This document shows, one piece after another, positions 7,023 to 33,260 of a stretch of 64,000 nt of DNA (position 1 is the first letter of the stretch; each line of letters begins with the position of its first letter). The stretch lies in contig JBKAGP010000001.1 of the NCBI GenBank assembly GCA_046290465.1, forward strand, positions 2,848,001 to 2,912,000, read 5' to 3'. This stretch comes from Planctomycetota bacterium. GTDB taxonomy: Bacteria > Planctomycetota > UBA1135 > UBA2386. Under the pieces are notes generated by a model, which was given only the letters and a program-made list of their open reading frames with translations, searched no databases and had not been told where the DNA came from. The position numbers were made by a program, and so were the translations under genes.

Positions 7023-9665
7023 TTACGGCACCATCGCCCCGCGGAACACCACGCCCGCGCGTCTCCCGCCGAACACCGTGACCAGGCGCCCGACGGTCGA
7101 GCCGCCAACCGACGAACCGCGCGCGATCCGGAACGTGTCGTAGCCGGTCGCCTCGACGGTCACCGTGACGTCCCCCACGTCCGCCTGCAGCGGCGTCTCT
7201 TCGTCGATCTCGAGCACGACGCCCCCCATGCCCCGCACGGGGATCGCGCGGTCTCCGTCGCCCTCACCGTCGATCGCAATGCTGTCCTCGAGCGCGAACC
7301 CGATGAACGGGTGCTCGCCGGTCGCGAGCACCCCGTAGCCGCCGTTCGATTCGAGTGCGGCGCCGAACGGGATCGACTGCCCCGCCTTGACCAGAACCTG
7401 GTGGAAGTCGACCTCGGGCACGTTCGCGATGAACTGGCGCAGCGCGTCCGGGAGCAGCTCCTGTGCGGCCGCCGGCTCGCCAGCTTCCGGGGCCTGGTAG
7501 TCCTCCGCGACGTCGAGCCACACGCCCATCGTCGACTCGCCGCCGGCGTCCGGGAACACGTACTCCGTCGGGAACGGGATCGGCGACGACGGGAGGTTGC
7601 CCTGGTTGGCGGCCGCCGGCGTGAGGTGGAACGGCGCCGCCGACGGGTCACCCTCGAACCACGGCGCCACGGTCGACGAGTTGGTGCCCTCGACGTCGCC
7701 GGCGTCGCCCCACCGGTTGCGATCGAACGTGATGCCCGAGCCCGAGTAGTTGAACTCCTCGAACACGCACCCGCGCACCTCGGTCCGGCCGGTCGCCGCG
7801 ATGCTGCCGAAGTCGACGTTGTGGAACGTGCAGTGGAAGAACAGGCAGTCGACCAGGCCACCGCCCGGGTTCATGTCCGACTTGTCGGGCCCGGCGTCGC
7901 CGCAGTCAACGAACGCCACGCGCTCCATGATCGGCGTCGAGCTCGCGAAGAAGCGCGTGCCCGTGCAGTCCTCGGACCGGATGCCCTGGATCACCGAGTT
8001 GGTGCAGGCCCCGTTGAACTGAATCACGTCGGGGTGCACCTGGTCGACGTAGGCGGACTGGTTCATCCCCTCAAGCGTCGCGGTGCCGACGTAGGTCGCG
8101 CAGTAGAGCCGGTGGCCGGCCAGGTCAGCGATCGGCGTCAGACCATGCGACGGCGCGTTGATCGTGATCGTGTATTCCGACCCATCGACACCGGCGGCCG
8201 TCACCTGGCGGCCTTCGAAGATCACCGGCCCCGAGCCCTTGGCGCCGTCGACCAGCGCGATGCCCCACCGCTCCGAAAGAACCAGCTCGGGGGCGTGGTC
8301 GGCAAAGTCGAGCTGCACCGACTCGTCCGGGTTGCCGAAGTTCGCCAGCGGGTTCACGTCGTAGCTCGCGGCGCGGCGAATCACGATCGTGTTGGCGTCC
8401 GGCGTCTCGAGGGAAACGCCGCTGTCGATCTCGCAGTCGATGTAGCCGCGAACCTCGGGGCCGTATCGCTGCCCCTTCGGCTTGCAGTTGGCCAGCATGA
8501 GCGAGGGGGCGTCGCTATTCGATTGCCAGCAGGTGGCCGTCCAGTCCTCGATCACGCAGTCGAGGCCGTAGCTGAAACTGACGAACGCGTTGTCGACACC
8601 GAGCGCACGAACGCACGTCGCGCCGAGGACTGCGCCCCCGCTGCCGCCGTTGTCGAGCACGTGGTCGAACAACCGGACCGTGTTCTCGGTGTAGCGCACG
8701 GACCAGCGGGTGGTGACCGCGTTGTGCGCCGGGTGCCCGAACACGCCGCCCTCGACGTGCAGCCACGTCGCGTTGGCCATGGCGGCGAGCGTGCCGACCT
8801 TGAGGTCGCCCTTGGTCACCTGCGGCGTCGACCCCTCGAGGATCATCAGGAGGCGCAGCTGCGCCGGGTGGCCGCTGCCGGTGTTCGGGAGCAGCCAGAG
8901 CGTGTCAGAGGAGTTGAAGCGGCCGTGCAGCCCCGCCTCCCAGATGACGGATCCGTTCGGATCCATGCCATCCCCGTTGCGCACGATCGTGGCGCCGTCC
9001 TCGACGCGCATCGTGACCCACCAGTGGTCCGACGTGCCGCCCTCGCAAGCCGGGTTACCTGGGCCGGCCCAGACGTGTTCGCCGGCCATCAGCACCACCT
9101 CGGCGCCGCCGAGCTCGCCCGTGCCGTTGGCGGCCTTGATGAACCCCTCCATCACCTGCAGCACGGCCGTGCCGCGGGTGAGCCCGTCGTTGGCGTTGTC
9201 GCCGCTGACGGGGTCGACGTAGATGACGCGCGTGTTCGGCCGCGTGTCGCTGTCCTTGTTGTTGTAGACCTTGAGCGTCGGCAGGTTCTCGGTGCTGCCG
9301 GCCGTCGTGGTCACGACCACTTCGATCGTGATGGTGCCGTTCGGCCAGTCGGCGGCGCGCAGGTCCATGCCGAACGCGAACAGGTCCGACATGGTCGTCG
9401 TGCCGGTCCTCGGGCTGACCTGAGTATTGTAGTTCGGCGCTCGCCTCGAACGCGCCGTGATCGGCGCCTGCGCCACCCCGTTGATCGTGAACACAACGGA
9501 GGCGATGTCGCCCTCTCCGCCCGTGCCGGTGCCCTCCAGGTTCGTCCACGAGACGACGTCGAGCGACACATATTCGCCGGCATCGTTGAGTTGTCGGCCA
9601 GTGAGCGTGGCCCATTGCGCGATCGGTGCAACCATACGTATTGACTCAAGCAGGTGCTGCGCCAA
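7023..9665 (-). CDS. Beta-helix (depolymerase-like) protein fused to a C-terminal capsid-decoration domain; putative head spike
   Basis: IYVDPVSGDNANDG...VVLMAGEH and HPDVIQ beta-helix-type motifs; last 136 aa align without gaps to 25097-25537. Confidence 0.8.
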   Translation of the reverse strand: MAQHLLESIRMVAPIAQWATLTGRQLNDAGEYVSLDVVSWTNLEGTGTGGEGDIASVVFTINGVAQAPITARSRRAPNYNTQVSPRTGTTTMSDLFAFGMDLRAADWPNGTITIEVVVTTTAGSTENLPTLKVYNNKDSDTRPNTRVIYVDPVSGDNANDGLTRGTAVLQVMEGFIKAANGTGELGGAEVVLMAGEHVWAGPGNPACEGGTSDHWWVTMRVEDGATIVRNGDGMDPNGSVIWEAGLHGRFNSSDTLWLLPNTGSGHPAQLRLLMILEGSTPQVTKGDLKVGTLAAMANATWLHVEGGVFGHPAHNAVTTRWSVRYTENTVRLFDHVLDNGGSGGAVLGATCVRALGVDNAFVSFSYGLDCVIEDWTATCWQSNSDAPSLMLANCKPKGQRYGPEVRGYIDCEIDSGVSLETPDANTIVIRRAASYDVNPLANFGNPDESVQLDFADHAPELVLSERWGIALVDGAKGSGPVIFEGRQVTAAGVDGSEYTITINAPSHGLTPIADLAGHRLYCATYVGTATLEGMNQSAYVDQVHPDVIQFNGACTNSVIQGIRSEDCTGTRFFASSTPIMERVAFVDCGDAGPDKSDMNPGGGLVDCLFFHCTFHNVDFGSIAATGRTEVRGCVFEEFNYSGSGITFDRNRWGDAGDVEGTNSSTVAPWFEGDPSAAPFHLTPAAANQGNLPSSPIPFPTEYVFPDAGGESTMGVWLDVAEDYQAPEAGEPAAAQELLPDALRQFIANVPEVDFHQVLVKAGQSIPFGAALESNGGYGVLATGEHPFIGFALEDSIAIDGEGDGDRAIPVRGMGGVVLEIDEETPLQADVGDVTVTVEATGYDTFRIARGSSVGGSTVGRLVTVFGGRRAGVVFRGAMVP

Positions 9666-9720
9666 GGCCGATAGCCAAGGCCACTTCTCATCACGCGCTG
9701 GGTTTCCTGACCAGCGCGAA

Positions 9721-9747: not shown

Positions 9748-9758
9748 TACTTCACGCG

Positions 9759-10034
9759 CTACTCGCGCGACAACGCCGCCTGCACGCCGGCGAGCGCCAC
9801 CTTGCCGATCCAGTCGGCGATGATGGTCTGCGCCGCGGCGGCCTCGGCGGCCGACAGGTTCGCGGCCTGCGCCGCGATGTGCTTCGCCTCGCGCTCGGCG
9901 CGCTGCGGGTCGGTCAGCGCCAGCGCCGCGACCTGCGTCGCGTCGGCGGCGATCTGCGCCAGCAGCTGCTGCTTGGCCGGGTCGGTGACTCGCGCCTTCA
10001 GCTGCGAGACCAGGTCGTCGAGCGGCGGGATCAT
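9759..10034 (-). CDS. Helical hypothetical protein (candidate lysis accessory)
   Basis: Ala-rich helical 91 aa with a hydrophobic C-terminus; coupled to the lipoprotein gene. Confidence 0.55.
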   Translation of the reverse strand: MIPPLDDLVSQLKARVTDPAKQQLLAQIAADATQVAALALTDPQRAEREAKHIAAQAANLSAAEAAAAQTIIADWIGKVALAGVQAALSRE

Positions 10035-10279
10035 CGCTTCACCTCACCGGTCTCGGTGCGGATGCGCCAGGTCTCGACCGTGCGGCCACGGCGCTCCTTC
10101 TCGACCGTCGTCAGCTCCGGGTCGGCCTCGACGTACTCGAGGTACTCGGGCGCGATCGTGTCGTAGGTCACGCGGTCGGCCTTGACGTAGGCGTCGGCGA
10201 CGCCGGTGCACGACGGCAGCACGCAGCAGCCCGCAACCAGCAGGAGAAGGAGAAGGGAACGTCTGATCTTCGGTTTCAT
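10031..10279 (-). CDS. Predicted lipoprotein (spanin-like candidate)
   Basis: MKPKIRRSLLLLLLVAGC/LPSC lipobox-like signal; located after the tail genes. Confidence 0.6.
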   Translation of the reverse strand: MKPKIRRSLLLLLLVAGCCVLPSCTGVADAYVKADRVTYDTIAPEYLEYVEADPELTTVEKERRGRTVETWRIRTETGEVKR

Positions 10280-11103
10280 GGCTTCGCAGTCGGTGGCCTG
10301 ACGGTCTCGAACACTTGCTCGAGCTCGATGATGAGCCCGCGGCAGCGGGCGGGGGATTCGAAGACCTGGCGCATCGCAGCAACGAACTGCGCGCGTTCGT
10401 CCTCGGGGATTGGTTCGAACCGGCCGGTCCGCATGCCGGGTTCCTGACTTTCGGGGTCGCCGTCGACCCAGAGCCGACGGCGGCCGAAGTTGATGCTCAC
10501 GTACCAGAGCTGGGCAGACGCTCGCCACGCGAAGGGCAGCACGATCGACGCGCACGTGCCCTGCTCTACGTACTGGTGCCTCAGCGTTCCGTGAGGTTGG
10601 CCCGGGTCGTCCGGGTCCTCTTCGACTGGGCATTCGAGCGCGACGCCGGTTCGGTTGGGCAGGCTCTCGAGCAGCCGGCCCAGGAAGTCGCGGTACCAGG
10701 AGTCGGCCTCGAATCGACGCCAGAGCTCGATCGTGTTGGGCTCGCCAGGGGCGGCGCGCTGCGCCTGGCAACGAACGGTGAGCGGGCCAGCGTTCCAGGC
10801 GTCACCACCGTTGTTCGCGGTGAGCAGCAGGCAGCGCTGAAACCCGCTCTCGGTGATCCACCGATGGACGACGGCCTCGATGGTGCGCACCCGGCGCATG
10901 TGCACGATCGACTCCTCGAACTGGATCTTGGCGTCGATCTTCGCGCTCTCGCGGCGTGCCAAGGCCCGGAAGCGCGTCGACAGCTCGCCGATCTTCGGCA
11001 CGATCTTGGTCAGCGCCACAACGGCCGCCATGACGACGGCTGCGATGCCGCCGATCCAGGCCATGGTGGTGACCGCCCAGGCGGGCATCTCGCTCGCGAG
11101 CAT
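10276..11103 (-). CDS. Holin-like protein: N-terminal TM plus soluble GAF-like domain
   Basis: One TM, coiled coil, then RCLLLTANNGG...SIVLPF...YVSINF; position typical of a lysis cassette. Confidence 0.45.
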   Translation of the reverse strand: MLASEMPAWAVTTMAWIGGIAAVVMAAVVALTKIVPKIGELSTRFRALARRESAKIDAKIQFEESIVHMRRVRTIEAVVHRWITESGFQRCLLLTANNGGDAWNAGPLTVRCQAQRAAPGEPNTIELWRRFEADSWYRDFLGRLLESLPNRTGVALECPVEEDPDDPGQPHGTLRHQYVEQGTCASIVLPFAWRASAQLWYVSINFGRRRLWVDGDPESQEPGMRTGRFEPIPEDERAQFVAAMRQVFESPARCRGLIIELEQVFETVRPPTAKP

Positions 11104-11576: not shown

Positions 11577-12205
11577 CAGACGACCTCGACGACCGCCCGG
11601 AAGTTCGTGAGGGTCGTAGCGGTGCCGACCTTCGTCATCGTGACCTTGAGGACGTCGAGATCGGCGAGGCTGAGGTTCTGGTCGGGCGTCAGCACGTAGG
11701 CCGCGTCGGCCACGAACTCGGCGCCGCCGCCGACGCCTCCGAGCGCCGTGAACGTCCCGACGGTCCCGCTGAACAGCTCGACCGGTGAGCCCGGCGAGGC
11801 CGCCGGGCACTTGCTCAGGCCGACCTGCCACTCGTTGCCCGACGAGCTCGTCGATGCCGTGTCGGACAGAAGCACCAGGCGCTTGACCGTGCCGGGACCC
11901 CGCGAGGCCCCCGCGTACGCGGTGGCCGTCGCAGACAGCGATCCGGTGAGGCCGTCGACGACGAGCTGGTGCCGCAGGTCGCTGCCCACGAAGCCGCGCT
12001 CGTACCAGACGGAGTTCGTCGCGTCGCGCTGCTTCAGCAGCGGCGGCGACGTCGACGTGTCGAGCCAGAGCTGGCCGGCGATCGGGTTGCTCGGCGCGGC
12101 GTCGCCGCTGAACTGCGTGCGCAGAGACTCCAGGGCGTTGGCGACGTTGGTCTTGATCGCGGTGTTGAGCCGCAGGCTGCCGGTCGGGAGGATGAAGTTC
12201 TGCAT
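11576..12205 (-). CDS. Tail fiber / receptor-binding protein
   Basis: N-terminal FSGDAAPSNPIAGQLWLDT...LKQRD...W motif typical of fiber attachment domains. Confidence 0.65.
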   Translation of the reverse strand: MQNFILPTGSLRLNTAIKTNVANALESLRTQFSGDAAPSNPIAGQLWLDTSTSPPLLKQRDATNSVWYERGFVGSDLRHQLVVDGLTGSLSATATAYAGASRGPGTVKRLVLLSDTASTSSSGNEWQVGLSKCPAASPGSPVELFSGTVGTFTALGGVGGGAEFVADAAYVLTPDQNLSLADLDVLKVTMTKVGTATTLTNFRAVVEVV

Positions 12206-15200
12206 CAGAGTCGCGCCTCTACTCGCGCCAGTCGGATCCGTGGGTTGTGGGTCGTGCTCTCGCGTTCGACGCGGATGCGGAACTGCGCGTAGCGCGAGCT
12301 GCGGACGCCGTCCTCGTGCGGCGTGTCGGCACCGAAGGAGCCCGACGACGTGCGGAAGCGCGACTCGAGCACGATGTTGGTGTGGCTGCCGGCCTGGCCG
12401 GCGCGGCCGTGCACGAACTCGGTGTCGGGCAGGTCGTCGATGATCGTCGTGACGTCGTCGACCGTTCGCGACCAGTCCACGCCCGGCCGGCCCGGCGATG
12501 CATCGCGCCCGTCCACGGTTCGCCAGTCGAGCTCAGGGCTGCCCAGCAGGTCGGTGACGTCGTCCACGAGCTCGCTGCTGTCGACGGCGCCCTCCACGGC
12601 GATGCGCCACAGGAACGGGCCATCGAACCCGGCGTCGTACTCGTCCGACTCGTAGGCTCCCTCGAGCGCATCGCCGTCCAGGGCCAGAACCCCCTCGTCG
12701 TTGACGGTGTCGGTGTGGGTGCCGTCGAAGTCGTCGTCGGTCCCGACGAAATCGACGTCGGGCCCCGCCGCGGCCGGGATGAACGGGGTCGGGTTGCTCT
12801 GCCGGCCGTCCTCGGCGACGGCCGCGATCAGGAACGAGTCCCCCGCGGGCGCCGCCGGCCAGGTCACGCGCGGGCCAGCGACCCGAGCCAGCACCGGTGC
12901 ACCGACCCAGCCGTCCCCCGCCCGGATCTCGTAGGCAATCGCGCCGGCGACGGCGCTCCACGACCAGGTCACGACGCCGTTGGCCTCGTTCTCCGTGATG
13001 CCGGTGACCGGCGGGACCGTCAGGGCCATGAACTCCGGCACGGTCACCAGGGCGCGCACGCCCGTCTCTGCGGGCTGATTCGCGTCCGAGCCCAGCTTGT
13101 CGAGCACGACCGAGATCTCCAGCTGAGCGCCAGCCTGGAGCCCCCGGACGTCCACACCGTTGCTGTCTGTCGAGCCGAGCGACGACCAGGTGTCGCCGCC
13201 GACCGGCCGCGCGAACACCCGGGCGGTCTCGGCGCGCCGCTCCGGCGGCTTGGCGAACGTGATCCGGTGACCATCCCGGATACGCACGACGCGGATCAGC
13301 GAGACCACGGGGTCGACGGCGCCGTCCTCCTGGGCCTCGACGGCCAGGAAGTCGGTCGAGAGTCCTTCGTCGTACTCCTCCGGATCGATGGCGTCGTAGA
13401 TCTCGGGCACCCACTCGAGCGCGGTGATGGCGTGGGTGAAGTCCTCGCGCGCCTCGATCGCCGTGATGCGGTAGGTCTCGACGACCTGGTCGTTCATGCC
13501 GAGCACCGCGTCGGCGCCGGCCGCGACGGTCACCGCCTCGTCCAGCGTCAGGATCGTGAACGTCCGCCCCTTGATCGTCGTGCTCGCCATGCTGTCGATG
13601 CCGACGTGCAGCGGCGCGCCCGACTCGGTCCGGAACACGACCGCATCCCATGGATCGCCGGCGGCGTCGTGGTCCACGATCACCGCTGCCGAGGCGGTGA
13701 CGTCATCGACGACGACGCAGGCCTGCGGAACGACCGCCCCGAACGGTCGGAGCACGTTGTTCTCGACGTCGATCAGGTCGCCGACCTGCGACGCCAGGGC
13801 CCATCGCCCCGTCACGAAGTCGATCTTGCGGGTGACCAGCCGGTTGACCAGGTGCCGGTAGATGCCCTCCCGCCAGACCTGCGTCGGCCGCGTGACGCTG
13901 AACAGCTGGGCTTGCTCGGGGCGGTACTTGTCGGCGACCTCGTCCGGCTGACCAGGGTCGTCCAGCGTGCTGCTCGGATCCTGGACAGGGAAGGCGTCCT
14001 GCTGCCAGAACTGCTCCTCGTTCAGGAACTGGAAGATGTAGGCCGTCGGGCGCGAGCTGCGCGGCAGCCACGTGACCGTCAGGTCCTGCACGGACGACGA
14101 AGAGAACAGCTGCGACGGCGCCTTCGCCGGGACGCTGACGCTGCCCTGTGCGTGCGCTGCCGCGAACTCGTAGACGATCGAGACCTTCCCGTTCTGGAAG
14201 ACCGGCGCTGCGCGACCGGCCTCGCAGATTGCCAGCACCCACTCCCAGGCGGGGCGCGACTCATCGAGCACCAGGTCGCACGTGAACTGCGGCTCGCCCC
14301 ACGGGTTGGCGGGGTTCGGGTCCCGGTCGCACCACACGGCCCAAGCAGCGAACGAAGGGAGGTCGAGGTCGTCCTCGCTCAGGTATTGCCCCAGGCCCCA
14401 TGGCTGGGTCAGGAAGTCGAGCAGGATCCACGCGGGGTTCCGACCAGGTGGGTAGTCGTGCCAGTCGAACGGGGCCGCCGGCACGTCCCAGCAGCGCGGC
14501 GAGAATCCCTGAACCGCGTCCCACACCCGCACCTTGACGCCATCGACCCTGACCTTGAACTGCGGCAGGCCGCCCGACCACTTGCTGGACGCCTGCAGGT
14601 TGAAGGCGGCGAGCGCGATGCGCGGATAGGCGAGCTGGTGCTCGATGGCGGTCGTCACCTCGCGCCACGTGATCGCACTGCCGCCGTTCTGCGGCGCGCC
14701 GGACTCGCGGCGCACGCGGAACTCGAGGTCCCCGCTGACCGGCGCCGCGAAGCGCCCCGTCACCGTGCGGACCTGCGGCGACGTGATGTCGGCGAAGTCC
14801 GGCGCGAACACGAACGTCTCGTTGTCGGACGTGCTCCACGGGGTGACCGGCTGCAGCTGACGCCACGCCGTCTCGCCGACGAACCGCCAGTTCAGCTTCA
14901 GGCTGCACTCGAACACCTCGTTCTCGCCGGTGGGCCCGAGCGAGTAGAGGCCCACCGGCGCCTCGAGCACGAAGCTGACCGTCGACACCTCCTCGGCGGA
15001 CGCGACGGTGAAGCTGCGCTCCTCGCCGAAGCCCTCGATCGCCTCGTTGACCCCGTAGGACGTCGAGACGTTGGAGAACGGGAACTCGAGCGGCGTCTGG
15101 CTCAGGGTCCCGGGCCGGATGCTGAGCTGCACGCCGGCACTCGGCTTCTGGAAGAACTGGAACGAACCCGCCTGGAACACGCGCGCATCGGCGGACGTGA

Positions 15201-16191
15201 AAGTCCCGCCGTTGACCTGGCCGAACGCGATCTCGAGGTTCGAGGTGTTCGGTGTCCCCAACGGAGCGACAGCCTCCCAGGCAGTCGGCCACTCCTTCAA
15301 CAGCGGTTCGAGCACCCCGCCGATCGACTGGACCGCGACTACCTCGACGCTGCCGTAGTTGGTCGAAGTGCTCGGGTTGTAGAGGAACGCTCGGTCGCCA
15401 GCGGTGAGCCCCGACGGACTGTTGATCCAACCACCTTGCCAGCTGAGCTTGATCGCTTGGTAGCCCTCGACGGTCGTCGCGAGCTCGGCATCGTTGACTC
15501 GGACGAAGTTCGGCAGAGGCGTCGGGTTCTCGGACGGGATCGGCTGCTGCGTTGCGGCGACGAGCGCGGACTGGCCGAGGCCACCGAGCCTGTCGGCCGC
15601 GGTAGCGAGGAAGTCGCCGACCCGGTGGATCGGACCTTCTGACAGAGCCAGGACCACGCGCAGCGTGTCGGTCGTGACCGCCAGCGCCGACGATCCACCC
15701 TGCGACCTCGCGAAGGCCGATGTCTCGATGGCCTGGCCGCCGGTCGCGATCCGTCCGTAGACGACCGGGACCAGAAGCCCTTGCCCGTAGTTCGTCCGGA
15801 TCCCGAGCCACGAGTAGGTGGCCGACCGCTCGTCGCCTCGATCCTGCGGCTGGTCAGGTGCCTTCCGCGTCGGGCTCAGCGCCTGGATCGCGTAGTTGAT
15901 ACCGACGCTGACGACCGCGGAGATGACCGCGTAGACGAAGTAGCCCAGCAGATCGACGCCGTACGTCGTCGGCGCAACGACGACCACAGTGTCGCCGTCG
16001 CGAAGCTCTCGGTCGTAGCCGTCCTCCCCCAGCATCGTGCCGTTCACCAAGGCCTCGACCTCGAGGCCAGGCAGGACGTCGGCAGCGGCCAGCGCGATGC
16101 AGCGAGCAGTCACACCAGACCGCCACGGCACCTCGCGGCGCACGACGTTCTCACTCCCGATGGAGCCGCGCCGAATCACCACGTTCAGCAT
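12205..16191 (-). CDS. Tail tip protein: gpI-like ubiquitin-fold domain fused to gpJ-like central tip
   Basis: VNG.....ELRDGDTVVVV, VPVVYGR, LSEGPI, LAYPRIAL, NPAWILLDFLT...WGLG, FTCDLVLD; FN3-like C-terminal region. Confidence 0.88.
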   Translation of the reverse strand: MLNVVIRRGSIGSENVVRREVPWRSGVTARCIALAAADVLPGLEVEALVNGTMLGEDGYDRELRDGDTVVVVAPTTYGVDLLGYFVYAVISAVVSVGINYAIQALSPTRKAPDQPQDRGDERSATYSWLGIRTNYGQGLLVPVVYGRIATGGQAIETSAFARSQGGSSALAVTTDTLRVVLALSEGPIHRVGDFLATAADRLGGLGQSALVAATQQPIPSENPTPLPNFVRVNDAELATTVEGYQAIKLSWQGGWINSPSGLTAGDRAFLYNPSTSTNYGSVEVVAVQSIGGVLEPLLKEWPTAWEAVAPLGTPNTSNLEIAFGQVNGGTFTSADARVFQAGSFQFFQKPSAGVQLSIRPGTLSQTPLEFPFSNVSTSYGVNEAIEGFGEERSFTVASAEEVSTVSFVLEAPVGLYSLGPTGENEVFECSLKLNWRFVGETAWRQLQPVTPWSTSDNETFVFAPDFADITSPQVRTVTGRFAAPVSGDLEFRVRRESGAPQNGGSAITWREVTTAIEHQLAYPRIALAAFNLQASSKWSGGLPQFKVRVDGVKVRVWDAVQGFSPRCWDVPAAPFDWHDYPPGRNPAWILLDFLTQPWGLGQYLSEDDLDLPSFAAWAVWCDRDPNPANPWGEPQFTCDLVLDESRPAWEWVLAICEAGRAAPVFQNGKVSIVYEFAAAHAQGSVSVPAKAPSQLFSSSSVQDLTVTWLPRSSRPTAYIFQFLNEEQFWQQDAFPVQDPSSTLDDPGQPDEVADKYRPEQAQLFSVTRPTQVWREGIYRHLVNRLVTRKIDFVTGRWALASQVGDLIDVENNVLRPFGAVVPQACVVVDDVTASAAVIVDHDAAGDPWDAVVFRTESGAPLHVGIDSMASTTIKGRTFTILTLDEAVTVAAGADAVLGMNDQVVETYRITAIEAREDFTHAITALEWVPEIYDAIDPEEYDEGLSTDFLAVEAQEDGAVDPVVSLIRVVRIRDGHRITFAKPPERRAETARVFARPVGGDTWSSLGSTDSNGVDVRGLQAGAQLEISVVLDKLGSDANQPAETGVRALVTVPEFMALTVPPVTGITENEANGVVTWSWSAVAGAIAYEIRAGDGWVGAPVLARVAGPRVTWPAAPAGDSFLIAAVAEDGRQSNPTPFIPAAAGPDVDFVGTDDDFDGTHTDTVNDEGVLALDGDALEGAYESDEYDAGFDGPFLWRIAVEGAVDSSELVDDVTDLLGSPELDWRTVDGRDASPGRPGVDWSRTVDDVTTIIDDLPDTEFVHGRAGQAGSHTNIVLESRFRTSSGSFGADTPHEDGVRSSRYAQFRIRVERESTTHNPRIRLARVEARL

Positions 16192-24744: not shown

Positions 24745-24758
24745 ACCGCCGCCGGCCA

Positions 24759-25097
24759 CTACTCGAGCACCTCCACGATGATCCGTGCCTGGTCCTCGCC
24801 GACGACGCGAACCACGCAGCACGGAACGGCCGCTTCGCCGATCCGGACCGGCAGCACGATCCGGTCCTTGCCGACGACCACCGACTCGACGCCCGTTGTC
24901 GCGTGCCGCGGCATCGCCACGACGCAGCTGCGCCGGTTGATCTCGCCGTCGGGCCCGTCGAAGTCGCGGCGCACGGCCGCGTTGAACGTGCGCTCCGGCG
25001 ACCCGTCGCTGAACCGGTACGTGATCGACTCGGCAACGCCGTTGGCGTTGCCGTAGATCTCGCGCGCGTGGCGCTGCTGTAGGTCGCGGAGGCCCAC
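24759..25097 (-). CDS. Head-tail joining protein (gpFII-like)
   Basis: AESITY..., beta-rich 112 aa; start overlaps the decoration gene stop. Confidence 0.55.
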   Translation of the reverse strand: MGLRDLQQRHAREIYGNANGVAESITYRFSDGSPERTFNAAVRRDFDGPDGEINRRSCVVAMPRHATTGVESVVVGKDRIVLPVRIGEAAVPCCVVRVVGEDQARIIVEVLE

Positions 25098-25537
25098 TAC
25101 GGGACCATCGCCCCCTTGAACAGGACCGCGACCCGCGAGCCGCTCAGGACGGTCACGATCTTGCCGACCGTCAAGCCGGTGATCGCGCTGGCGCGCTCGA
25201 TGCGGAACGTGTTGTCGTCGGTCGCCTCGACAGTCACGGCCGCCGCGCCGACGTCCGACTGCAGGGCCGTCTCGGTCGTGATGTCGAGCTCGATGCCGCC
25301 CTGCGCGCGCACGCCGATCGTCCGATCGCCGTCCGCCTCGCCGGACACCGCCAGGCTCGTCTCCAGCGCGAAGCCGGCGAACGTGCCCGCGCCCGAGGCC
25401 ACCTCCAGGTAGCCGCCGTTCAGCTCGAGGCACGCGCCGGCGTAGATGGTCTGACCCGCCTTGACCGGCATCTGCTGCAGGTCGATTTCGGGGACGTTCG
25501 CCAGGAACGGCGGGACTCGCTCTTCGGTCATTGCCAT
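25097..25537 (-). CDS. Capsid decoration/cement protein
   Basis: PVKAGQTIYAGA...FAGFALE...DGDRTIGVR..G...DVG; directly follows the major capsid gene; AAGGAG RBS. Confidence 0.8.
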   Translation of the reverse strand: MAMTEERVPPFLANVPEIDLQQMPVKAGQTIYAGACLELNGGYLEVASGAGTFAGFALETSLAVSGEADGDRTIGVRAQGGIELDITTETALQSDVGAAAVTVEATDDNTFRIERASAITGLTVGKIVTVLSGSRVAVLFKGAMVP

Positions 25538-25598: not shown

Positions 25599-26528
25599 TC
25601 AGGTGGTCAGCGTGACGCGGACGGCCTGGTCGTAGCGGCCGTAGCCGGCCGCACAGACGCGCTTGGCCTTGAACAGGTGCACGTCGTTCAGGAACCCGAT
25701 GTCGGAGTTCTGCGGGTTGCGCTCCGCGAACTGCGTCGGCACCTCGTCCTGCCAGAGCAGCGCGCGCACGTCGCTGTCCGACCGGAACACGAACAGCTGA
25801 TCCTCCGCCGTCAGGCGCGGGTTCATGATCACGCTGATCTGGTAGTCGCTGTTGCGCAGCGTGTTGCTCGCGCCGTTGCCCGAGAACTCGTTGCGGGTCG
25901 CGGACAGCAGGCCCGTGTGCAGGTTGATCGGGCACATGATCGTGAACTGCCGTGCGAACTCGTTGCGCGGCTCGCCCTCGTCGTCCAGGAAGCCGACGAT
26001 CTGCTCGATCGCCTTGAGCGCGACATCGATGCCCTCCTGCGTCGTCAGCTGGTTCGCCGCGGCGACCGTGTGCGAGATGGCGTTGTCGATGGTGTCGCCG
26101 TTCTCGTTGCGGTGGTCCGACGCGAAGAAGTTCTTCTTGTCGTAGGCCTTGCCGTTGGCGTTGAGCAGCAGCGCCGTCAGCAGCGACTGCGGCAGCTGCG
26201 CCGCGCGGGCGGCACGCTCGTTGACGCGGGCCATGATCTGCCCGGTCTTGTCGCGCCGCATGTCGTCTTCCTTGATCTCCAGGATGTTCTGGTAGACGCG
26301 GTTGCGCAGCGACAGCTCGAAGGTCTTGAGCGTCCGCTTGGTCGGGCTGTTCCCGAGCTCCTTCAGAGTCGGGCTATCCGACGCGAAGGTGTAGGTCTCG
26401 ACCTCCTGGTTGGAGTCGTACTGCGAGGCCAGCCGGGAAACCCAGCTGGCGGTCATGGCCTCCTCGAGGCGCTTGAAGAAGGCCCCGATGATCGCGCGCG
26501 ATCCGAGGCCCTTGAGGGTTCCGGGCAT
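25599..26528 (-). CDS. Major capsid protein (Mu gpT-like)
   Basis: SNQEVETY, LRNRVYQN.LEI..DD..RD..G, AYDKKNFFASDH, AGYGRY. Confidence 0.85.
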   Translation of the reverse strand: MPGTLKGLGSRAIIGAFFKRLEEAMTASWVSRLASQYDSNQEVETYTFASDSPTLKELGNSPTKRTLKTFELSLRNRVYQNILEIKEDDMRRDKTGQIMARVNERAARAAQLPQSLLTALLLNANGKAYDKKNFFASDHRNENGDTIDNAISHTVAAANQLTTQEGIDVALKAIEQIVGFLDDEGEPRNEFARQFTIMCPINLHTGLLSATRNEFSGNGASNTLRNSDYQISVIMNPRLTAEDQLFVFRSDSDVRALLWQDEVPTQFAERNPQNSDIGFLNDVHLFKAKRVCAAGYGRYDQAVRVTLTT

Positions 26529-26587
26529 GTCTGTCTCCTGTTCCGTGTCTGTCGTTTGTCCTGTTCCGTCAGAACCGGATCAGCGCA

Positions 26588-28018
26588 CTACTGCGCAATC
26601 CGGCCCTCGCTCTCCGCCTTCCGGTAGGCGAGGAACGCCTGCTTGTCGTCCTTGAACTCCTCGCGGACCTCCGCCGAGGCCTCCCACTCCCTGTCCCACT
26701 TCGACGCGCCCTCCGGCATGCCGGCGATGCGCTCCTCGACGGAACGGGTGTCGGTGCCGCCGTTGTTGCCGGTGGCCAGCGAAGCGGACGCGGGCGGCGC
26801 GACGCGCTGCCGGCGGTCCTCGATCAGCGCCGTGAGCGCCTCCGCCTCCGGCGTGCCGCTGTCGATCAGCTGCTGCGCGACGTCCTTCTGGTCGGGATCG
26901 GCGGCGCGGAGGATCCGCGACGCACGCGCACGCTCGGCGGCGGCCGTGTCGGCCGTGCTGCTGGGCGTGTCGTCGGCACGCGCCTCCGGCTGGGTCTCCG
27001 GCTCGGCGGCCGGCGTCGTCGACGGCGCCGTGGCCTCCGTCGGGGTGGCCGCAGTCTGTTCGTGCGCGGCGCTCTCGTTCGTCTCGGGCATCTGAGGTTC
27101 CTCCTCGTCTGGGTGAGCGCCTGCGCCTCCTGTGGCGTCAGGCACGGATTCGGTTGCAGCGGCGCCGCGCGCCATGGCGCGCGCGCGCTTCACGGCGATC
27201 TCGACGTCGCCGATCTCGTCGACGTAGCCCTTGTCCTGGGCCTCGGCGCCGATGTAGATGCGGCCGTCGCCCATCGAGCGCGCAGCCTCGACGTCGATGC
27301 CGCGGCCCTCGGCGATGCTCTCGACGAACATCTCGTGGTAGCGGTCGACCTCGCGCTGCACGTCGGCGCGGTCGGCGTCGCTGACGGCGCCGTTCGATTG
27401 CACGCCGCCCTTGGCCGGCGTGCTCTTCACCACGACGGGCTCGTAGCCGCGGTTCGCGAGCGCGCGGCTGTTGTCGAGGAAGCTGGCGATCACGCCAACC
27501 GATCCGACGGACGAACTGCGCGTCGCGACGATGCGGTTCGCCTGGGATCCCAGGTAGTAGGCGGCCGAGGCCATCATGGCGTCGGTGTGCGCCACGATCG
27601 GCTTCTGGTCGCGTGCGGCGCGGATCTCGGCGGCCAGCTCGTCGATCCCGAGGACGCTGCCGCCGGGAGAGTCGATCTCGAGCACGATCGATCGGACCGA
27701 CGAGTCCGCGACCGCGGCCCGGAGGTCGGAGCGGATGTGCTCGACGGAGGTCCCCACGTTGCTGCAGATGTCGCCGACCGCGCTCGCGCGCTGCGCGATC
27801 ACGCCCTGGATCGGCACGAAGGCAACACCGCGCTCGGTCCGCATCTCGGCGTCGCGCTTCGGCCGGTCGCGACGCGCAGCGGCGGCGATCCCCTCGTCCG
27901 TGATCTTGATGCCGTCCTCGCGGCTGATCAGCAGCTGCATCATGCGACGGTGCGTGCCCTCGTCCATCGCCCATGCGTGCGATAGCGCGAACGTCAGGAT
28001 TCGACTCAGGGTCGTCAT
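26588..28018 (-). CDS. S49 prohead protease with scaffold-like C-terminus (gpC/Nu3-like)
   Basis: IDSPGG, MASAAYYLGS, VGSVGV; acidic linker followed by a helical C-terminal part. Confidence 0.9.
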   Translation of the reverse strand: MTTLSRILTFALSHAWAMDEGTHRRMMQLLISREDGIKITDEGIAAAARRDRPKRDAEMRTERGVAFVPIQGVIAQRASAVGDICSNVGTSVEHIRSDLRAAVADSSVRSIVLEIDSPGGSVLGIDELAAEIRAARDQKPIVAHTDAMMASAAYYLGSQANRIVATRSSSVGSVGVIASFLDNSRALANRGYEPVVVKSTPAKGGVQSNGAVSDADRADVQREVDRYHEMFVESIAEGRGIDVEAARSMGDGRIYIGAEAQDKGYVDEIGDVEIAVKRARAMARGAAATESVPDATGGAGAHPDEEEPQMPETNESAAHEQTAATPTEATAPSTTPAAEPETQPEARADDTPSSTADTAAAERARASRILRAADPDQKDVAQQLIDSGTPEAEALTALIEDRRQRVAPPASASLATGNNGGTDTRSVEERIAGMPEGASKWDREWEASAEVREEFKDDKQAFLAYRKAESEGRIAQ

Positions 28019-29709
28019 GCCTGCTCTGCCTCCGGTTCCTCGTTCTCGTCGTCGTCGGCGCCCTCGTCTTCGAGTTCGCCCTCGTCGCCGACCTGCGGGT
28101 CCAACTCGTCCCCTTCCTCGGGCGGGTCAGGAGGCTCCGTCGCCGGCGGCGCCGACGCGGCTCCCTTGCCCAGGAGCGAGCCGGGCTTCAGCCCGAGCTC
28201 CTCCTCAATCGCCTCCGCCTTCTTGATGTACTCGGCGTTCTTCCGAAGCAGCTCCTCTGCGTCGAGGCCGAGGCGCGCCGCCTCGTCGTACGGCGTCGAG
28301 AGGTGGTTCTCGATGGCAATGCGGCTGCTCTCGATCTCCTTGACGGGATCGACCCAGCCGTAGGCCGGCGGCATCCAGCGGACAGCGAGGAACGGCTTCG
28401 GGTTGTCCCGGAAGCCGGGCGGCATCGGCAGCGTGCCGTCCGAGATCTTCGAACGGATGACGTTGGACCACCACGGCATGCAGAACTGCCGGATCAGCAT
28501 CGCGCGCAGCGCGTCGAACCCGCGGCGGCACTCGAGCAGCATCGAACGCGCGCTGCTGTAGTTCATGCGGCCGAGGTCCTTTGAGACGAGCTCGTAGGAC
28601 AGGCCCTGACTCGCCCAGATCGCGCGAAGGATGCGCGTGACGAACGCGTCGAACTGCGCGCCGGGCCGATTCGGCATGAACGGCTCGATGCTCTCGCCTT
28701 CCTCGAGGTACTCGATCGTGCCGGCCTCGAGGCGCTGCAGCAGCTTGCCCTCGTCGTTCGGACTGCTGCCCGGGCGGAAGTCGCCGCCGTCCAGTTCGGG
28801 CGCACGCTTCACGAACATGGCGATATTGCTGCTCGCGCGCGCGGCGATCAGCTCGCTGCTCAGATACTCGTGCAGGTGGCGGTTGTAGGGCAGCGCTGCC
28901 GCCAACCATGGGACGCCGCGCGTCTGGCCCGGGCGATCGCGCCGGAAGACGTGCTGCACCATGCTGTAGCCGTTCTCCTCTGCCACGACGTAGCTGCCGG
29001 TGAGCCCGGTTCGTGCACCGAAGGAGGCGTCCGCTGGGTGCGAGTCCAGGAAGTGGTATCGGACCGGCTGGCCGCGATCGCCGAGCTCGACGCCCGCGCG
29101 CATCCGATCCGTGTCGATGGCGTTCGGGGACTCCAGCCGGTCGGAGTCGATCAGCTCGCAGAACAGGTCGTTGCCGTCCTTGACCAGGTGCCCGAGGCCT
29201 TCGCCGTCCTGCATCAGCATCCGAACACCGATTCGCTGCAGGTCGCTGAACGAGCCGTAGTTGGTGGCGTCGGCGTGCGGCGCCCACTCGGACCACGCGG
29301 CTTCGCATGCGCCGCGCCAGTCCTGACACTCGCCTTCGGACATGCCGGTCGCCTCGGGCGTGCAGATGCTCTGCGGCAGGATCCCCTTGCCGACCGTGTT
29401 CTCCTCGAGCACGCGCACGGCCGCGGCGGCGTGCGCATCGTCGCGAACCATCGTGCGGGAGGCATCGCGCAGGATCTGCAGGTTCGGGATCGCCTCCGCG
29501 TCGGCGCTGCCGCTGTAGCTGCGGCTGTTGGTCCTGCCGATGCGCGCCGCCTCGTAGGTCAGCAGCCCCTGCGCTCGCAGGCGATGCTGACGCATCTCGA
29601 GCCCCATCTTCGGCATGAAGGTGCCGACCACCCCGTCGACGATGCGCCGCACGGCGCCGCCGACGCCGGAGTAGATCGATTGCAGCTGCTGTTCGGTGCT
29701 CCTCCCCAT
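28015..29709 (-). CDS. Portal protein, lambda gpB family
   Basis: RPGQTRGVPWLA, NYSSARS, WVDPVKE motifs. Confidence 0.93.
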   Translation of the reverse strand: MGRSTEQQLQSIYSGVGGAVRRIVDGVVGTFMPKMGLEMRQHRLRAQGLLTYEAARIGRTNSRSYSGSADAEAIPNLQILRDASRTMVRDDAHAAAAVRVLEENTVGKGILPQSICTPEATGMSEGECQDWRGACEAAWSEWAPHADATNYGSFSDLQRIGVRMLMQDGEGLGHLVKDGNDLFCELIDSDRLESPNAIDTDRMRAGVELGDRGQPVRYHFLDSHPADASFGARTGLTGSYVVAEENGYSMVQHVFRRDRPGQTRGVPWLAAALPYNRHLHEYLSSELIAARASSNIAMFVKRAPELDGGDFRPGSSPNDEGKLLQRLEAGTIEYLEEGESIEPFMPNRPGAQFDAFVTRILRAIWASQGLSYELVSKDLGRMNYSSARSMLLECRRGFDALRAMLIRQFCMPWWSNVIRSKISDGTLPMPPGFRDNPKPFLAVRWMPPAYGWVDPVKEIESSRIAIENHLSTPYDEAARLGLDAEELLRKNAEYIKKAEAIEEELGLKPGSLLGKGAASAPPATEPPDPPEEGDELDPQVGDEGELEDEGADDDENEEPEAEQA

Positions 29710-32700
29710 CAGTCAAACGCGACCCTCACACTGCCGCCGCCGCGCTTGCGCGCGGCCTGGTGCTGCTGGTGCCTCTGCAGCTTGATGAGCTCGTCGGGAC
29801 TCCGACGCTGCACGGAGTCGCCCGTGGCCGTCGTGTAGCTCGCGACGTCCGGCGAGTCGTGCATGGCATCGGTGAGCGCCTGCTGCTGCTCGGGAGTCGC
29901 CGTCGGACCGTCTTCGCCGCCGGACTCGGCGGGCGCCGCCGGCGGGCTGTCCCCGCCTTCCTCCGGCGCGTCCCCGCCGCCGTCGCCGTCGCCGTCGCTC
30001 ACCGAATCGAACGTGCCCGCAGTCGTCGATCCGTAGATCACCGCGGCCGACCCCGTCGGATGCGACGGCCAGGTCGCGGCCCCATCGAGCGCGGCGTCGA
30101 TCAGGAACCCCTTGCTGATCATGTTGCGCGGGGTCAGGTGCAGCCCGTTGAACTCGCGGTACGGCAGATACGGCATGTTGCCGAACGCGACGTTCGCGAC
30201 GCTGAGGTCGAGCGCGAGGTTGGACGGATCGACGAGGATGCCCCCCTGCATGGAGGCTGCTTGCGCCTGCTGGGCCGCCCGGATCCGCGAGACCTGCTCG
30301 GTGCTGCCGAACGGCGTGCCGGCGTGCAGCTGCACGACGACGCGCGCAGGCGTGTCGCCGCCGACTAGGCCGTCCGTCAGGAACGTCTGGTCGATCGCCT
30401 CCCAGAGGTTGGCGAGGTTGGCGGCGTAGTCGTTCGACTGCGACAGGTCGGCCTCGCCGTTCTCCCAGATGACGGCGACCACCTTCGGCATGTAGCGCTT
30501 GTTCGCCGCGAGGCCGCCGTCGCCGTCGCCCACGTTGACCAGACGGTCCAAGCACGCGGACCACTGCTGCTTGGCGTAGACCCAGCAGGGCGGCGGCCCC
30601 ACCTTCACCGCGATGTCCGAACCCGGCGTGCCGGCGGGGTAGAGCGTCGTCCGGATGCCGGCCTGCACCACCAGCTTCGAAGCTGTGCAGCTGGCCGCGA
30701 TCGCGTAGACGAAGGCGTGCTGGTCGTCGTGGTAGCTCGCGTTCGAGCTCGCGAGCTGCAGCGGGATCAGCGGCAGCGCCGCGCCGCCCTCATCCTGCTG
30801 GCCAATCAGGCCGCCGCTGGTCCCGAACAGGCTGCCGAACACGGCGCCGGCGGCCGACGTGATCTCGACCGTCGAGCCGACCGTCGTGAACGTCAGGTCG
30901 CCGCGCGTGACCGTGCCCTGCGACGCCGTCGGCGACCAGGTCGCGTAGCCGTTCGTGTCGGCCGACACCGACGACGAGTTGATGCCGATCTTGAACAGCA
31001 GGACCTTGCCGAAACGCTCGCGCGCGCGCGCCATGATCGGGATCTCGGGACCGCAGTCGCCCGCGTTGTCCCACGCCGTGTTCGCGCCGTCGCCGCCGAT
31101 GTCGAAGCGCTGGATCTGGCCGTCGACGAAGTTCCAGTGCATGACCTCGTCGGTCGTCGTGTCGACGCCCGACAGCGGCCAGTGCTCGCTCGAGTGGTAG
31201 AGTGTCGGGTCCGCGTCCTGCGGCAGCCACTTCGAAGGGTCGATCAGGCCCTTCACCTGCGACTGGCCCAGGTAGACCACGATCGCGAGCTGCTCGAAGA
31301 ACGATTCGGGGAACGCCACGTCGAGCCCCGACATCTTCCGCCAACCCGCGAGGCCGAGGTTCAGGTAGTCCTCGGGGCGCAGCCACTCGTTGTCGTCGAC
31401 GAACGCGCCAGCGGGCCCCGACGTCAGCGCGACGCCGCCAATCATCTGGTAGTTCGGGCTGCGGACGTGGTTGTGGCTGCTGCTCGTCTGGTCGGCCGAG
31501 TGCCAGTTCTCGCGGATCCGCTTGATCGCCTCGGCCGCGGTGAAGGCCGCGAACGCCGACGTCGGCTGGTAGCCCTGCTCGTCGCTGCGGTGCGACAGGA
31601 TCACGACGTCAGCGCCGATCTCGAGGTTGAAGTCGCTGTCGGTGAGCAGCTCGGCGACCAGGTCGGCGTAGTCCTGCGCGCCGGGGCCGAAGATCGCCTT
31701 GTAGCCGGAGCTGTAGGTGAACGGTGCAGCACCGTTCATCCAGTCGTCGACGTCGCCGGCCGCCGTCAGGCAGGCCTCGAGTCCGCGCAGCGTGGTCCAC
31801 TCGCCGGTCCACGGGAACAGGGCGACCTTGCGCACCTGCGCGGCGCCGCCGGGTTGGCCGGCGGCGTCGTCCCGCGCGGCGATGAAGCGCGCGCGCATGT
31901 TCTCGTAGTGCAGGCTGCCCTTGCGCCACCCGAAGACGGTCGAGTCGGCGGTCGCGGTCGCGCCGCTCGATGCCCCCGTGATCGTGTCCGTCGCCGCGAG
32001 CACGCCGCCGTTGGTCTGCCGGACGAACATCACGTCCTCGGCGTCGCTCAGGCAGATCACCTGCGCCGACCAGGCGCCGCCGTTCGACACCGTCTCGCCG
32101 GCCGTGAAGTCGCCGACCAAGCCGCTGACGTCGATCTCCTGCACCGCGACGCCGCCGCGCACGCCGGCCGCCGCCCCGTCCTCGAGCGACGAGTACTTCA
32201 CGACTCGGCAGTCGAAGCCCATCCCCGTGCACCAGTTCTTGAAGCTCGGGATCATCCGCATCGTCGGCGACGGCGCGGTCAGCAGCTTCTGCCCGTCGGA
32301 CGGCGGTTGAGCCCACTGGCCGTAGGTCGTCCCGTAGGTGATCTCCTGCGGGTCGGTGAGCCCCAGACCCGGCAGCGGCGCGTAGGGCGCCCACGCGCCC
32401 TGCGTGTGCGTCTCGACCGACACCACCGACCGGTCCGTCGCCGCGCTGGCGTGGGCGCCGGCGACGCCGCCCAACGCGACCGGCAGGCAGTTCCACCAGA
32501 CCCGGGTGATGACGTCCGAGATCCCCGGCGTGCCCGTCAGCGTGTGCACGTAGAGCTCGTCGTCCCCGGCGGTGCTGACCGAGTAGAGCACGACGCCCGA
32601 CCAGGTGTTGCCCGCGTTGCGGATGATGTCGCCGGGGTAGATGGTGGTCGAACCGTCGACCGTGATCTTGGTGGCCTTGCGCGCGCCGCTGTCCCAAACG

Positions 32701-33260
32701 ACCGGGTCGGCCGCGTCGCCGCTGACGTCGAAGTTCGCCTGGTCGGCGTCGGCCCACAGCTTCGACTGCATCCAGTGCCGGATCGTCGGAGCGGCGAAGT
32801 CAGTCGTCGTAGACCCGTCGGGGTCGATGATCAGGCACTCGACGCCGGTGCCGCCGCCGACCCAGCCGTCGAGCAGCGCCTCGACGCGGGAACCGAGCAG
32901 GTTTTGGTAGTAGGCCGAGTCCGGGACGCCGGCCGTGCCCGCGTGGAGCGCGGGCGTCGACCACATGAACTCCGCCGGCACCAGCTTCACCAACAGGTGC
33001 GAGCCGCCGTAGCCGGTCGGCAGCGTCTCGGCGAACTTGCCGACGACGATGCCGACGCTGACGAGGCTGAGGTTCTGGTCGGTGGCCGCGGCCTTTGGCG
33101 CGATCAGGTCGCCCTCGCTGACCGCGGCGAACTGGCCGCTGCTGCCCGAGATCAGGACGTGGTACGGCGGGAGCTGCGGCCAGAGCGCACCCGGCGGGCT
33201 GACATGGCGGTCGCCACCGATCAGCATGTAGGGGGTCGTCGCCACCCTGACACTCTGCAT
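29709..33260 (-). CDS. Large virion protein: tandem SGNH/SASA esterase-like domains plus C-terminal gpW-like module
   Basis: YLGQSQ, GPE, IWENGEAD and NGLHLT motifs; last ~65 aa gpW-like; sits in the gpW slot immediately before the portal. Confidence 0.7.
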   Translation of the reverse strand: MQSVRVATTPYMLIGGDRHVSPPGALWPQLPPYHVLISGSSGQFAAVSEGDLIAPKAAATDQNLSLVSVGIVVGKFAETLPTGYGGSHLLVKLVPAEFMWSTPALHAGTAGVPDSAYYQNLLGSRVEALLDGWVGGGTGVECLIIDPDGSTTTDFAAPTIRHWMQSKLWADADQANFDVSGDAADPVVWDSGARKATKITVDGSTTIYPGDIIRNAGNTWSGVVLYSVSTAGDDELYVHTLTGTPGISDVITRVWWNCLPVALGGVAGAHASAATDRSVVSVETHTQGAWAPYAPLPGLGLTDPQEITYGTTYGQWAQPPSDGQKLLTAPSPTMRMIPSFKNWCTGMGFDCRVVKYSSLEDGAAAGVRGGVAVQEIDVSGLVGDFTAGETVSNGGAWSAQVICLSDAEDVMFVRQTNGGVLAATDTITGASSGATATADSTVFGWRKGSLHYENMRARFIAARDDAAGQPGGAAQVRKVALFPWTGEWTTLRGLEACLTAAGDVDDWMNGAAPFTYSSGYKAIFGPGAQDYADLVAELLTDSDFNLEIGADVVILSHRSDEQGYQPTSAFAAFTAAEAIKRIRENWHSADQTSSSHNHVRSPNYQMIGGVALTSGPAGAFVDDNEWLRPEDYLNLGLAGWRKMSGLDVAFPESFFEQLAIVVYLGQSQVKGLIDPSKWLPQDADPTLYHSSEHWPLSGVDTTTDEVMHWNFVDGQIQRFDIGGDGANTAWDNAGDCGPEIPIMARARERFGKVLLFKIGINSSSVSADTNGYATWSPTASQGTVTRGDLTFTTVGSTVEITSAAGAVFGSLFGTSGGLIGQQDEGGAALPLIPLQLASSNASYHDDQHAFVYAIAASCTASKLVVQAGIRTTLYPAGTPGSDIAVKVGPPPCWVYAKQQWSACLDRLVNVGDGDGGLAANKRYMPKVVAVIWENGEADLSQSNDYAANLANLWEAIDQTFLTDGLVGGDTPARVVVQLHAGTPFGSTEQVSRIRAAQQAQAASMQGGILVDPSNLALDLSVANVAFGNMPYLPYREFNGLHLTPRNMISKGFLIDAALDGAATWPSHPTGSAAVIYGSTTAGTFDSVSDGDGDGGGDAPEEGGDSPPAAPAESGGEDGPTATPEQQQALTDAMHDSPDVASYTTATGDSVQRRSPDELIKLQRHQQHQAARKRGGGSVRVAFD

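Follow-up and report, generated by a model that had tools for sequence, protein, structure and literature searches.

Precedents exist for each principle by which small structural proteins of a phage particle come to carry extra domains: the cement heterotrimers of T1, the Ig domain on the R4C adaptor, the evolved distal tail (Dit) proteins, and the lactococcal 936 siphophages decorated with carbohydrate-binding modules (CBMs). As described for T1, long and short cement paralogs form mixed trimers of one gp48 and two gp49 beside homotrimers, and the extension of the long paralog protrudes and may aid adsorption (PMC11945409). The R4C adaptor is a dodecamer in which a long flexible loop bears an N-terminal Ig domain, positioned outside the capsid (PMC10276861). 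The 936 phages place glycan-directed domains on the neck, tube and Dit of one virion and shuffle them as bricks (PMC6669499), the head-spike fibres of RcGTA bind the capsule (PMC7296036), and the virion SGNH domains of G7C gp63.1 and of Klebsiella prophage receptor-binding proteins de-acetylate surface polysaccharide (PMC13123978). Here we analyze an intact, lambda-like prophage in a 64,000-nucleotide stretch of a Planctomycetota genome (contig JBKAGP010000001.1, positions 2,848,001 to 2,912,000; hereafter the window, in whose own numbering coordinates are given). Three of its late genes, A, B and C, join a large N-terminal part to a capsid cement, a head-tail adaptor and a tail-base Dit module, respectively; enzymes are probably borne on the head and neck of the virion, not solely at its tail tip.

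Each fusion has a counterpart among these systems and departs from it in size and placement. Like T1, the proposed gene A arrangement pairs a long and a short cement paralog, but the gp48 extension comprises about 100 residues at the C terminus (PMC11945409), whereas that of A is a 720-residue beta-helix at the N terminus. R4C gp004 (8GTD chain M) resembles B in being a homologous helix-loop-helix adaptor that is extended N-terminally by one more domain; in R4C this is a 106-residue Ig domain to which a structural role is ascribed (PMC10276861), whereas the clade of B adds 570-1120 residues with an esterase active-site motif. The modules of 936 phages and evolved Dits are small binding domains, internal in the Dit or C-terminal on the tube (PMC6669499), in contrast to the enzyme-sized N-terminal cargoes that the window clade places on core joints of a lambda-like phage from a Gram-negative phylum. 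The extension of C matches no CBM, its Dit module is uninterrupted and the extension is N-terminal, so it is not an internal CBM insertion; gene C falls outside the strict definition of an evolved Dit. Relatives of the A cargo use the same spike base as the RcGTA head spikes Rcc01079/Rcc01080, either fused to it or through a GLG peptide that is C-terminal in these relatives and N-terminal in RcGTA (PMC7296036), while the window has no known spike base and uses a cement copy instead. Finally, the SGNH domains of G7C gp63.1 and the Klebsiella proteins sit on tail fibres or spikes (PMC13123978), and those of B on the head-tail adaptor as a predicted dead and live pair. What is new are the enzyme-sized N-terminal cargoes and their shuffling between anchors. 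In open-access full text, we found no adaptor-esterase or cement-depolymerase fusion and no enzyme-sized N-terminal cargo on an adaptor, cement or stopper, and the literature matches listed included no Planctomycetota phage virion structure.

The three fusions are real. All three genes are open reading frames (ORFs) over their full coordinates on the minus strand, and none has a Pfam or NCBIfam name. The first-pass annotation, made from the letters alone, had described three late genes with a large N-terminal part, a linker and a small C-terminal module; the ORFs, linkers and module matches bear this out, and the evidence supports the assignment of the three modules to decoration, gpW-type and gpM-type proteins. 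A contig of sequencing run X1, possibly the source sample, is identical to 6400-9549 and spans the junction of cargo and cement in A at 7460, which argues against an assembly artefact, although it is not independent. Pieces of related DNA are present in runs X2, X3 and X6, from two other studies, and no independent contig was seen to bridge that junction. An alternative allele of A, from an X2 contig joining 7207 to 9767, was set aside, its 37 letters on the short side being too weak to count. The fusions differ in age, those of B and C being clade-wide and that of A a local duplication, and the earlier idea of one designed system finds no support.

Gene B ends in a 63-residue module of the gpW/Ad1 type (29709-29900, minus strand), which abuts the portal gene and is preceded by a 45-residue Gly/Asp/Glu linker (29901-30035). 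A profile of ten such C-terminal modules matches residues 116-177 of the R4C adaptor (8GTD_M, E 2.3e-7), and the gene lies between the terminase and portal genes, as expected of an adaptor. Members of this set match PHROG 118, 2545 and 5774 (6/10, 5/10 and 5/10; the window's own module is not among them). Neither the window nor the near clade matches Pfam gpW (PF02831), and two free adaptor relatives match NCBIfam phage_HTJ under its cut-off (E 0.012-0.017). Judged by these profiles, the module is an R4C/Ad1-type adaptor that corresponds to lambda gpW only by position. Gene B gives the single adaptor match in the genome, so B has no free subunit. The N terminus is long in 11 of 14 distinct near-clade adaptor genes (632-1183 aa, two cut by contig starts) and the other three are short (69, 69 and 108 aa); these 14 genes derive from 162 portal loci, of which 21 score above 700 bits, 20 of them with an adaptor match. 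More distant loci hold 36 distinct adaptors, 17 of at most 130 aa, 18 of 131-210 aa and one long ORF that by eye looks like a read-through. The bare adaptors of relatives G215 and L111 nest within the fused clade (100/100), and a single clade of fused adaptors is rejected (p-AU 0.0002, 8 versus 6 rows, the group having been named after an earlier tree), which implies either an ancestral fusion with losses or repeated gains.

The cargo of B comprises two SGNH-like domains. The first (31341-33260) has two small beta inserts and lacks the block I serine; throughout the tandem forms Gly-Asp or Gly-Gly replaces this residue, except in two free copies in G152. The second (30081-31298), of the SASA/SGNH type and split by one insert, holds the motifs GQS667Q, GEAD938 and NGLH1041, of which we take S667, D938 and H1041 to be the SGNH block residues. 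A profile of the cargo family matches 2APJ (E 1e-9) and sialic acid acetylesterase (E 1e-3), and the family returns SASA/CE6 esterase matches, with PF03629 above its cut-off in relatives G281 and G152 and under it in 2 of 8 further cargoes. His1041 and the block III Asp938 are invariant in 13/13 aligned rows and a block I Ser motif is present in 12/12 full-length rows, and the catalytic Ser and His persist between cargoes whose local alignments show no more than about 26-36% identity. B looks like a dead and an intact-looking SASA/SGNH esterase in tandem. A 921-aa chromosomal ORF (G000:C1:1523768-1526533) matches the cargo profile (E 1e-20) and is a possible cellular relative.

The cargo of the adaptor varies between phages. 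In a tree of the second domain the window groups with L112, L110 and G294, a genome of the same family (99/98), in conflict with the portal tree, which points to exchange of B cargoes between phages. The SGNH cargo of L113 is a separate upstream gene overlapping the adaptor start, and two G152 prophages carry the tandem SGNH as free genes. In L111, where the adaptor is bare, a 727-aa protein (L111:7681-9864) shows weak GH49 matches (E 0.008 and 0.06), and its residues 613-727 match a stopper (E 3e-14); by these matches the stopper is a fourth anchor in this relative. The region N-terminal to that stopper is a GH49/dextranase-like beta-helix. The window's stopper (gpFII-like, 24759-25097, minus strand) is unfused. 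In a G152 prophage whose adaptor is bare, the gene between this adaptor and the Zn-ribbon gene (L015:5355-8372) encodes a 1005-aa LamG and beta-helix-like protein that apparently has a signal peptide.

Free SGNH genes of this kind would fit a reading in which A, B and C are made as precursors: cleavage within the linker would release the cargo, or an internal start would yield the anchor by itself, and soluble enzymes at lysis would free the progeny from extracellular polysaccharide (EPS) or modify the lysogen surface. The long low-complexity linkers of A, B and C and the S49 protease encoded by the prophage are in line with it. Nevertheless, no clear Shine-Dalgarno sequence accompanies the in-frame ATG and GTG codons close to the module boundaries, and a search for slippery heptamers drew a blank in A, B and C, whereas it detected the GGGAAAG site of the G/T chaperones at 21474. 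Inspection revealed no signal peptide on any of the three proteins, and the fusion is kept in those 11 of 14 relatives. We consider such processing quite improbable.

Gene A differs from B in having a free counterpart of its anchor. Its cement module (7023-7460, minus strand) is complete, with the N-arm motif L-x5-R-x-F, and follows a 15-residue acidic Ala/Pro linker (7461-7505). A start at TTG 9665 was discarded, since homologs begin MVAPIA, which makes ATG 9635 the likely start. The free cement or decoration protein (25097-25537, minus strand; PHROG 1731, E 3.6e-9) is encoded directly after the major capsid gene (25599-26528). Residues 745-880 of A share 59% identity with it over 136 aa (blastp E 2e-47), and the DNA is repeated at 70% (7118-7417 and 25192-25491). 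In a tree of 20 of the 36 aligned family rows, fused and free cement are sisters (99/98), with branches of 0.79 and 0.13, six times longer for the fused copy, and dN of 0.33, dS of 0.72 and dN/dS of about 0.47 between them. Placement and branch lengths indicate that the anchor of A is a local duplicate of the cement gene and that the fused copy changed faster. The N-arm motif is nearly invariant in the 36 rows and kept by the fused copy; the free copy has M..P there. In the cement of E217, an N-terminal arm links neighbouring trimers on the capsid (PMC10329688). Among 30 short relatives picked from the best 150 matches, 19 match the cement families PF22758, PF09956 or PF23982 at E<=0.05, two of the 30 above cut-off; the window's cement proteins have no Pfam match and no PDB sequence match.

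Modelling supports a mixed cement trimer of two free subunits and one fused subunit. Cements of the type of E217 gp24, Pam3 gp6 and XM1 gp53 are trimers with a beta-tulip fold that bind the threefold axes of the capsid. While the cement module has a pLDDT below 30 in the full-length model of A, a trimer model of two free cement proteins with the fused module scored 0.87 (best of three controls, 0.00), a mark reached by 116 of 157 solved pairs and 2 of 215 mismatched ones. At least 97% of contacts agree between runs, the partner pLDDT is 91, and the first 13 residues lie outside the confident interface contacts. Of the best 150 cement-family representatives, 47 are at least 180 aa long, with a maximum of 397, and all of these extend C-terminally. 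No longer cement homolog was found among 3863 candidates, which is weak evidence. Many of those 47 proteins (P0023-P0158, 180-397 aa) bear C-terminal coiled coils or small beta domains and amount to an unannotated set of head fibres.

The cargo of A (7506-9635) is predicted to be an N-terminal beta-sandwich followed by a right-handed parallel beta-helix with an insert. The model shows the right-handed beta-helix with a pLDDT mostly of 60-90, and a beta-helix leads in Atlas at 0.84-0.89. An alginate epimerase/lyase aligns over 284 residues (Z 17.0, root-mean-square deviation (rmsd) 3.6), VIA neighbours at Z 16-17 comprise alginate epimerase/lyases, RbmB and tailspikes, and Foldseek neighbours are GH110, GH136 and GH87 (E 1e-6 to 1e-4). 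D514 (in VHPD), D534, D574 and E597, in the numbering of P0001, are invariant among the homologs. We found seven of these, at 34-52% identity, and none (0/7) ends in cement. P0007 ends in the RcGTA-type spike_base domain NF048002 (E 1.8e-9, above cut-off), and on a viral contig (L183:4293-6742) a spike_base gene (E 5e-25) stands directly before homolog P0005, which ends IGFGLGFGLGF; the RcGTA head fibre docks in its base pentamer by the peptide IALGLGLGL (PMC7296036). The L183 arrangement is that of an RcGTA-like head spike whose docking peptide is C-terminal, and the phage has a lower GC content. P0006 ends in a 163-residue tail and the remaining four homologs in 29-78 residues. Read from these homologs, the cargo of A is older than its cement anchor, and its association with a spike base in relatives is the best independent argument for A as a head appendage. 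A distant relative of the cargo in G658 resembles a secreted cellular protein.

At the tail base, gene C ends in a Pro-rich linker (26% Pro) and a gpM-like Dit module (17265-17678, minus strand), in the slot between tape measure and gpL that belongs to the lambda order H-M-L-K-I-J. A 109-residue lambda tail-tip chain ranks first of 48,161 chains against residues 482-590 of C (Z 8.1, 98 aligned, rmsd 5.8), a modest Z from a model with pLDDT 30-80 in that part; the next best are the tail-tip chains of Sf11 (Z 7.6), T1 (Z 7.5) and RcGTA (Z 7.1). We take the lambda chain to be gpM. The N-terminal region (17679-19043) of about 480 residues has no Pfam, PHROG, NCBIfam or PDB sequence match, and a profile of residues 1-475 finds none under E 0.05. 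Display of glycan-active domains had been proposed for head, neck and tail base alike; it is supported for head and neck, with their beta-helix and SGNH folds, and unsupported for the tail base. The gene after the tape measure is long in 7/7 loci where it is visible (the window, G294, two G152 loci and three truncated at contig ends), P0159 matches C at 99%, and alignment of the N-terminal region is good across six sequences and poor for G152. On the strength of these alignments, the region is a conserved part of the clade's Dit, not a swappable cargo.

A second, free gpM-like gene (23278-23622, minus strand) lies between the tail terminator and tail tube genes in 9/10 loci, the tenth ending at a contig end, and unlike gpM it is not in the slot after the tape measure. 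Its assignment rests on Atlas features at 0.97, a TM of 0.76 to the Phage_min_tail cluster and PHROG 14 (E 0.034); its alignment has no PDB sequence match. In the tail, C and the free protein could form one mixed 3+3 Dit ring, in keeping with the mixed free and fused subunits of the first-pass annotation. Both have the gpM fold and are detectably related (hhalign probability 66%, E 5e-5), and six 480-residue extensions would crowd a threefold tip. However, the C module and the free protein have no blastp similarity, the free gene is about 4 kb from C in its own position, and Dit is homohexameric in the solved lambda-like tips that are described (PMC11945409). A 3+3 ring is rather doubtful; no less likely is a separate ring of the free protein, probably situated at the upper end of the tube. 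The two free paralogs proposed in the first-pass annotation are therefore of different kinds, the cement one close and the gpM-like one only a distant paralog of the C module. The related proposal that free and fused subunits set stoichiometry survives for the modelled cement trimer; B lacks a free counterpart, and the free gpM-like gene is a remote relative that keeps a fixed slot of its own.

Altogether, we favour a reading in which this prophage is one of a clade of lambda-like Planctomycetota siphophages whose small structural proteins would bear large domains at their free N termini. As B is the only adaptor, it would give 12 tethered O-acetylesterase arms at the neck, in which the first SGNH domain may contribute binding at most; as C occupies the Dit slot, about six copies of its N-terminal domain would sit at the tail base. 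The cement gene would have been locally duplicated onto a mobile head-fibre cargo, and A would enter a minority of cement trimers beside two free subunits. Head and neck might thus hold on to a polysaccharide layer, and de-acetylate or cleave it, ahead of engagement by the tail tip. This layer may be the host capsule or EPS, or an algal matrix where the host may live. The sequencing run that best covers the stretch is labelled algae metagenome and may be its source. Cargoes would be exchanged between phages and between anchors. We regard it as fairly likely that the particle bears these 12 esterase arms, about six C domains and a minority of cement trimers with a beta-helix, and that they serve in crossing or gripping polysaccharide.

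The three fusions could instead be unrelated accretions, with B and C ordinary essential proteins that inherited spacer or stabiliser extensions, A a recent tolerated fusion that may be decaying, and none of them needed for entry. The different fusion ages and the long branch of the fused cement fit such a history, the adaptor cargo is dispensable in G215 and L111, which lack it, and in L113, where it is split off, and the R4C adaptor Ig domain was judged structural by its authors (PMC10276861). We nevertheless hold this to be unlikely, since the catalytic Ser and His are kept across highly diverged cargoes, L111 without an adaptor cargo has another glycan-type domain on the neighbouring stopper, and the A cargo is head-anchored by other means in relatives.

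Several observations do weigh against enzymes displayed on head and neck. B itself misses the Pfam SASA cut-off (E 0.13), and it has N-G-L-H instead of D-x-x-H, Asp being present at that column in 3/13 rows; NanS uses a Ser-His dyad. Beta-helices of non-catalytic adhesins and cementing proteins are also close to the A cargo (PfbA and adenovirus LH3, Z 15-16). The long branch of the fused cement fits relaxed selection, and the trimer model may have passed through likeness to solved cement trimers and to a close paralog. A large N-terminal cargo occurs in none of the best 150 of 1226 cement-family representatives; a fusion of the A type can, however, be grouped under a representative of its cargo, which is the case for A. 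The C cargo has no sequence match that would name it, and the AlphaFold2 model of C (mean pLDDT 32, four sequences) is interpretable only at the C terminus of the protein.

A broader version of the display reading is tentative, and we put it at somewhat below even. Any small head or neck joint with a free N terminus (cement, spike base, adaptor, stopper, Dit) might take a whole glycan enzyme in an anchor-swapping toolkit, cargoes moving between joints and phages; the virion would digest its way head-first through acetylated EPS or algal matrix, with a second gpM-fold ring in the tail and a new receptor-binding fold in the 480-residue region of C. Phage enzymes acting on surface sugars are sought in tail fibres and spikes, while here they would occupy adaptor, cement and stopper slots annotated as hypothetical. 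If true, what determines host range would lie at head and neck throughout a phage clade whose host phylum specialises in polysaccharides. The natural fusions indicate at which of their ends adaptor, stopper, cement and Dit can carry 60-120 kDa, a point relevant to the design of phage display, and the cargo families are candidate new carbohydrate-active enzymes.

The prophage spans about 42.7 kb, from a tRNA-Phe gene at the attL side (917-992, plus strand), its integration site, to an attR-side copy of the tRNA 3' end and flank (43670-43782, plus strand), a 93% repeat of 944-1056. The repeat runs on past the tRNA (944-1203 and 43670-43921) and takes in a degraded copy of the 5' part of the integrase gene, which suggests that an earlier related element was once at the same site. 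The genes of the late operon, all of them open frames, follow the order of lambda on the minus strand: TerS, TerL, Zn-ribbon gene, gene B, portal, S49 protease, Mu-gpT-like capsid, cement, stopper, gpZ-like, terminator, free gpM-like gene, tube, G/T chaperones, tape measure, gene C, gpL, gpK, gpI-J, small genes and gene A (gpZ and G/T being labelled by position). The head module (25599-35988, minus strand) comprises the Mu gpT-like major capsid, S49 protease, lambda-family portal, Zn-ribbon gene, TerL (gpA) and TerS. The capsid is matched in 7/91 genomes of the family. Single-sequence scans of viral contigs with portal and cement gave no matches, and a genome-contig scan with the tube alignment gave no loci beyond two already known.

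Inserted domains had also been claimed for the tail tube and tip. Extra segments are indeed present, without a match that would name them: the 473-aa tube (21853-23274, minus strand) has one that is common to relatives, and residues ~262-376 of the gpI-gpJ tip fusion (12205-16272, minus strand) have no counterpart in G294. A single inserted domain common to tube and B, hinted at by blastp (E 0.01-0.03), was rejected, as a profile of seven B inserts matched 0/6 tubes and 0/2 tips.

The Zn-ribbon gene (33309-33533), between TerL and the adaptor gene, is kept across the clade. Upstream of the terminase, a large gene (36872-38755) without an NCBIfam match has similar-sized genes in the same place in G152, G215, G294 and L115, and L183:704-1903 may be a relative of it. 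Two small genes at 9759-10306, one lipoprotein-like, are kept in G152 prophages and may make up the cassette for lysis; the late operon showed no recognisable endolysin gene. Accessory genes (4347-6791) follow the repressor, encoding a small predicted exported Ig-like protein (4838-5176), a protein that we take to be BRCT-like (5272-5889) and a ClpP-like SDH protease (5922-6791). Small elements with scattered virion genes, either remnants or satellites, occur at L007:17954-19161, L008:2369-5962 (G199) and L010:15558-19767 (G121). They hold cement, TerS and tip J, or protease, truncated cement, tape measure and Zn-ribbon genes, and the G199 cement is 62% identical to that of the window.

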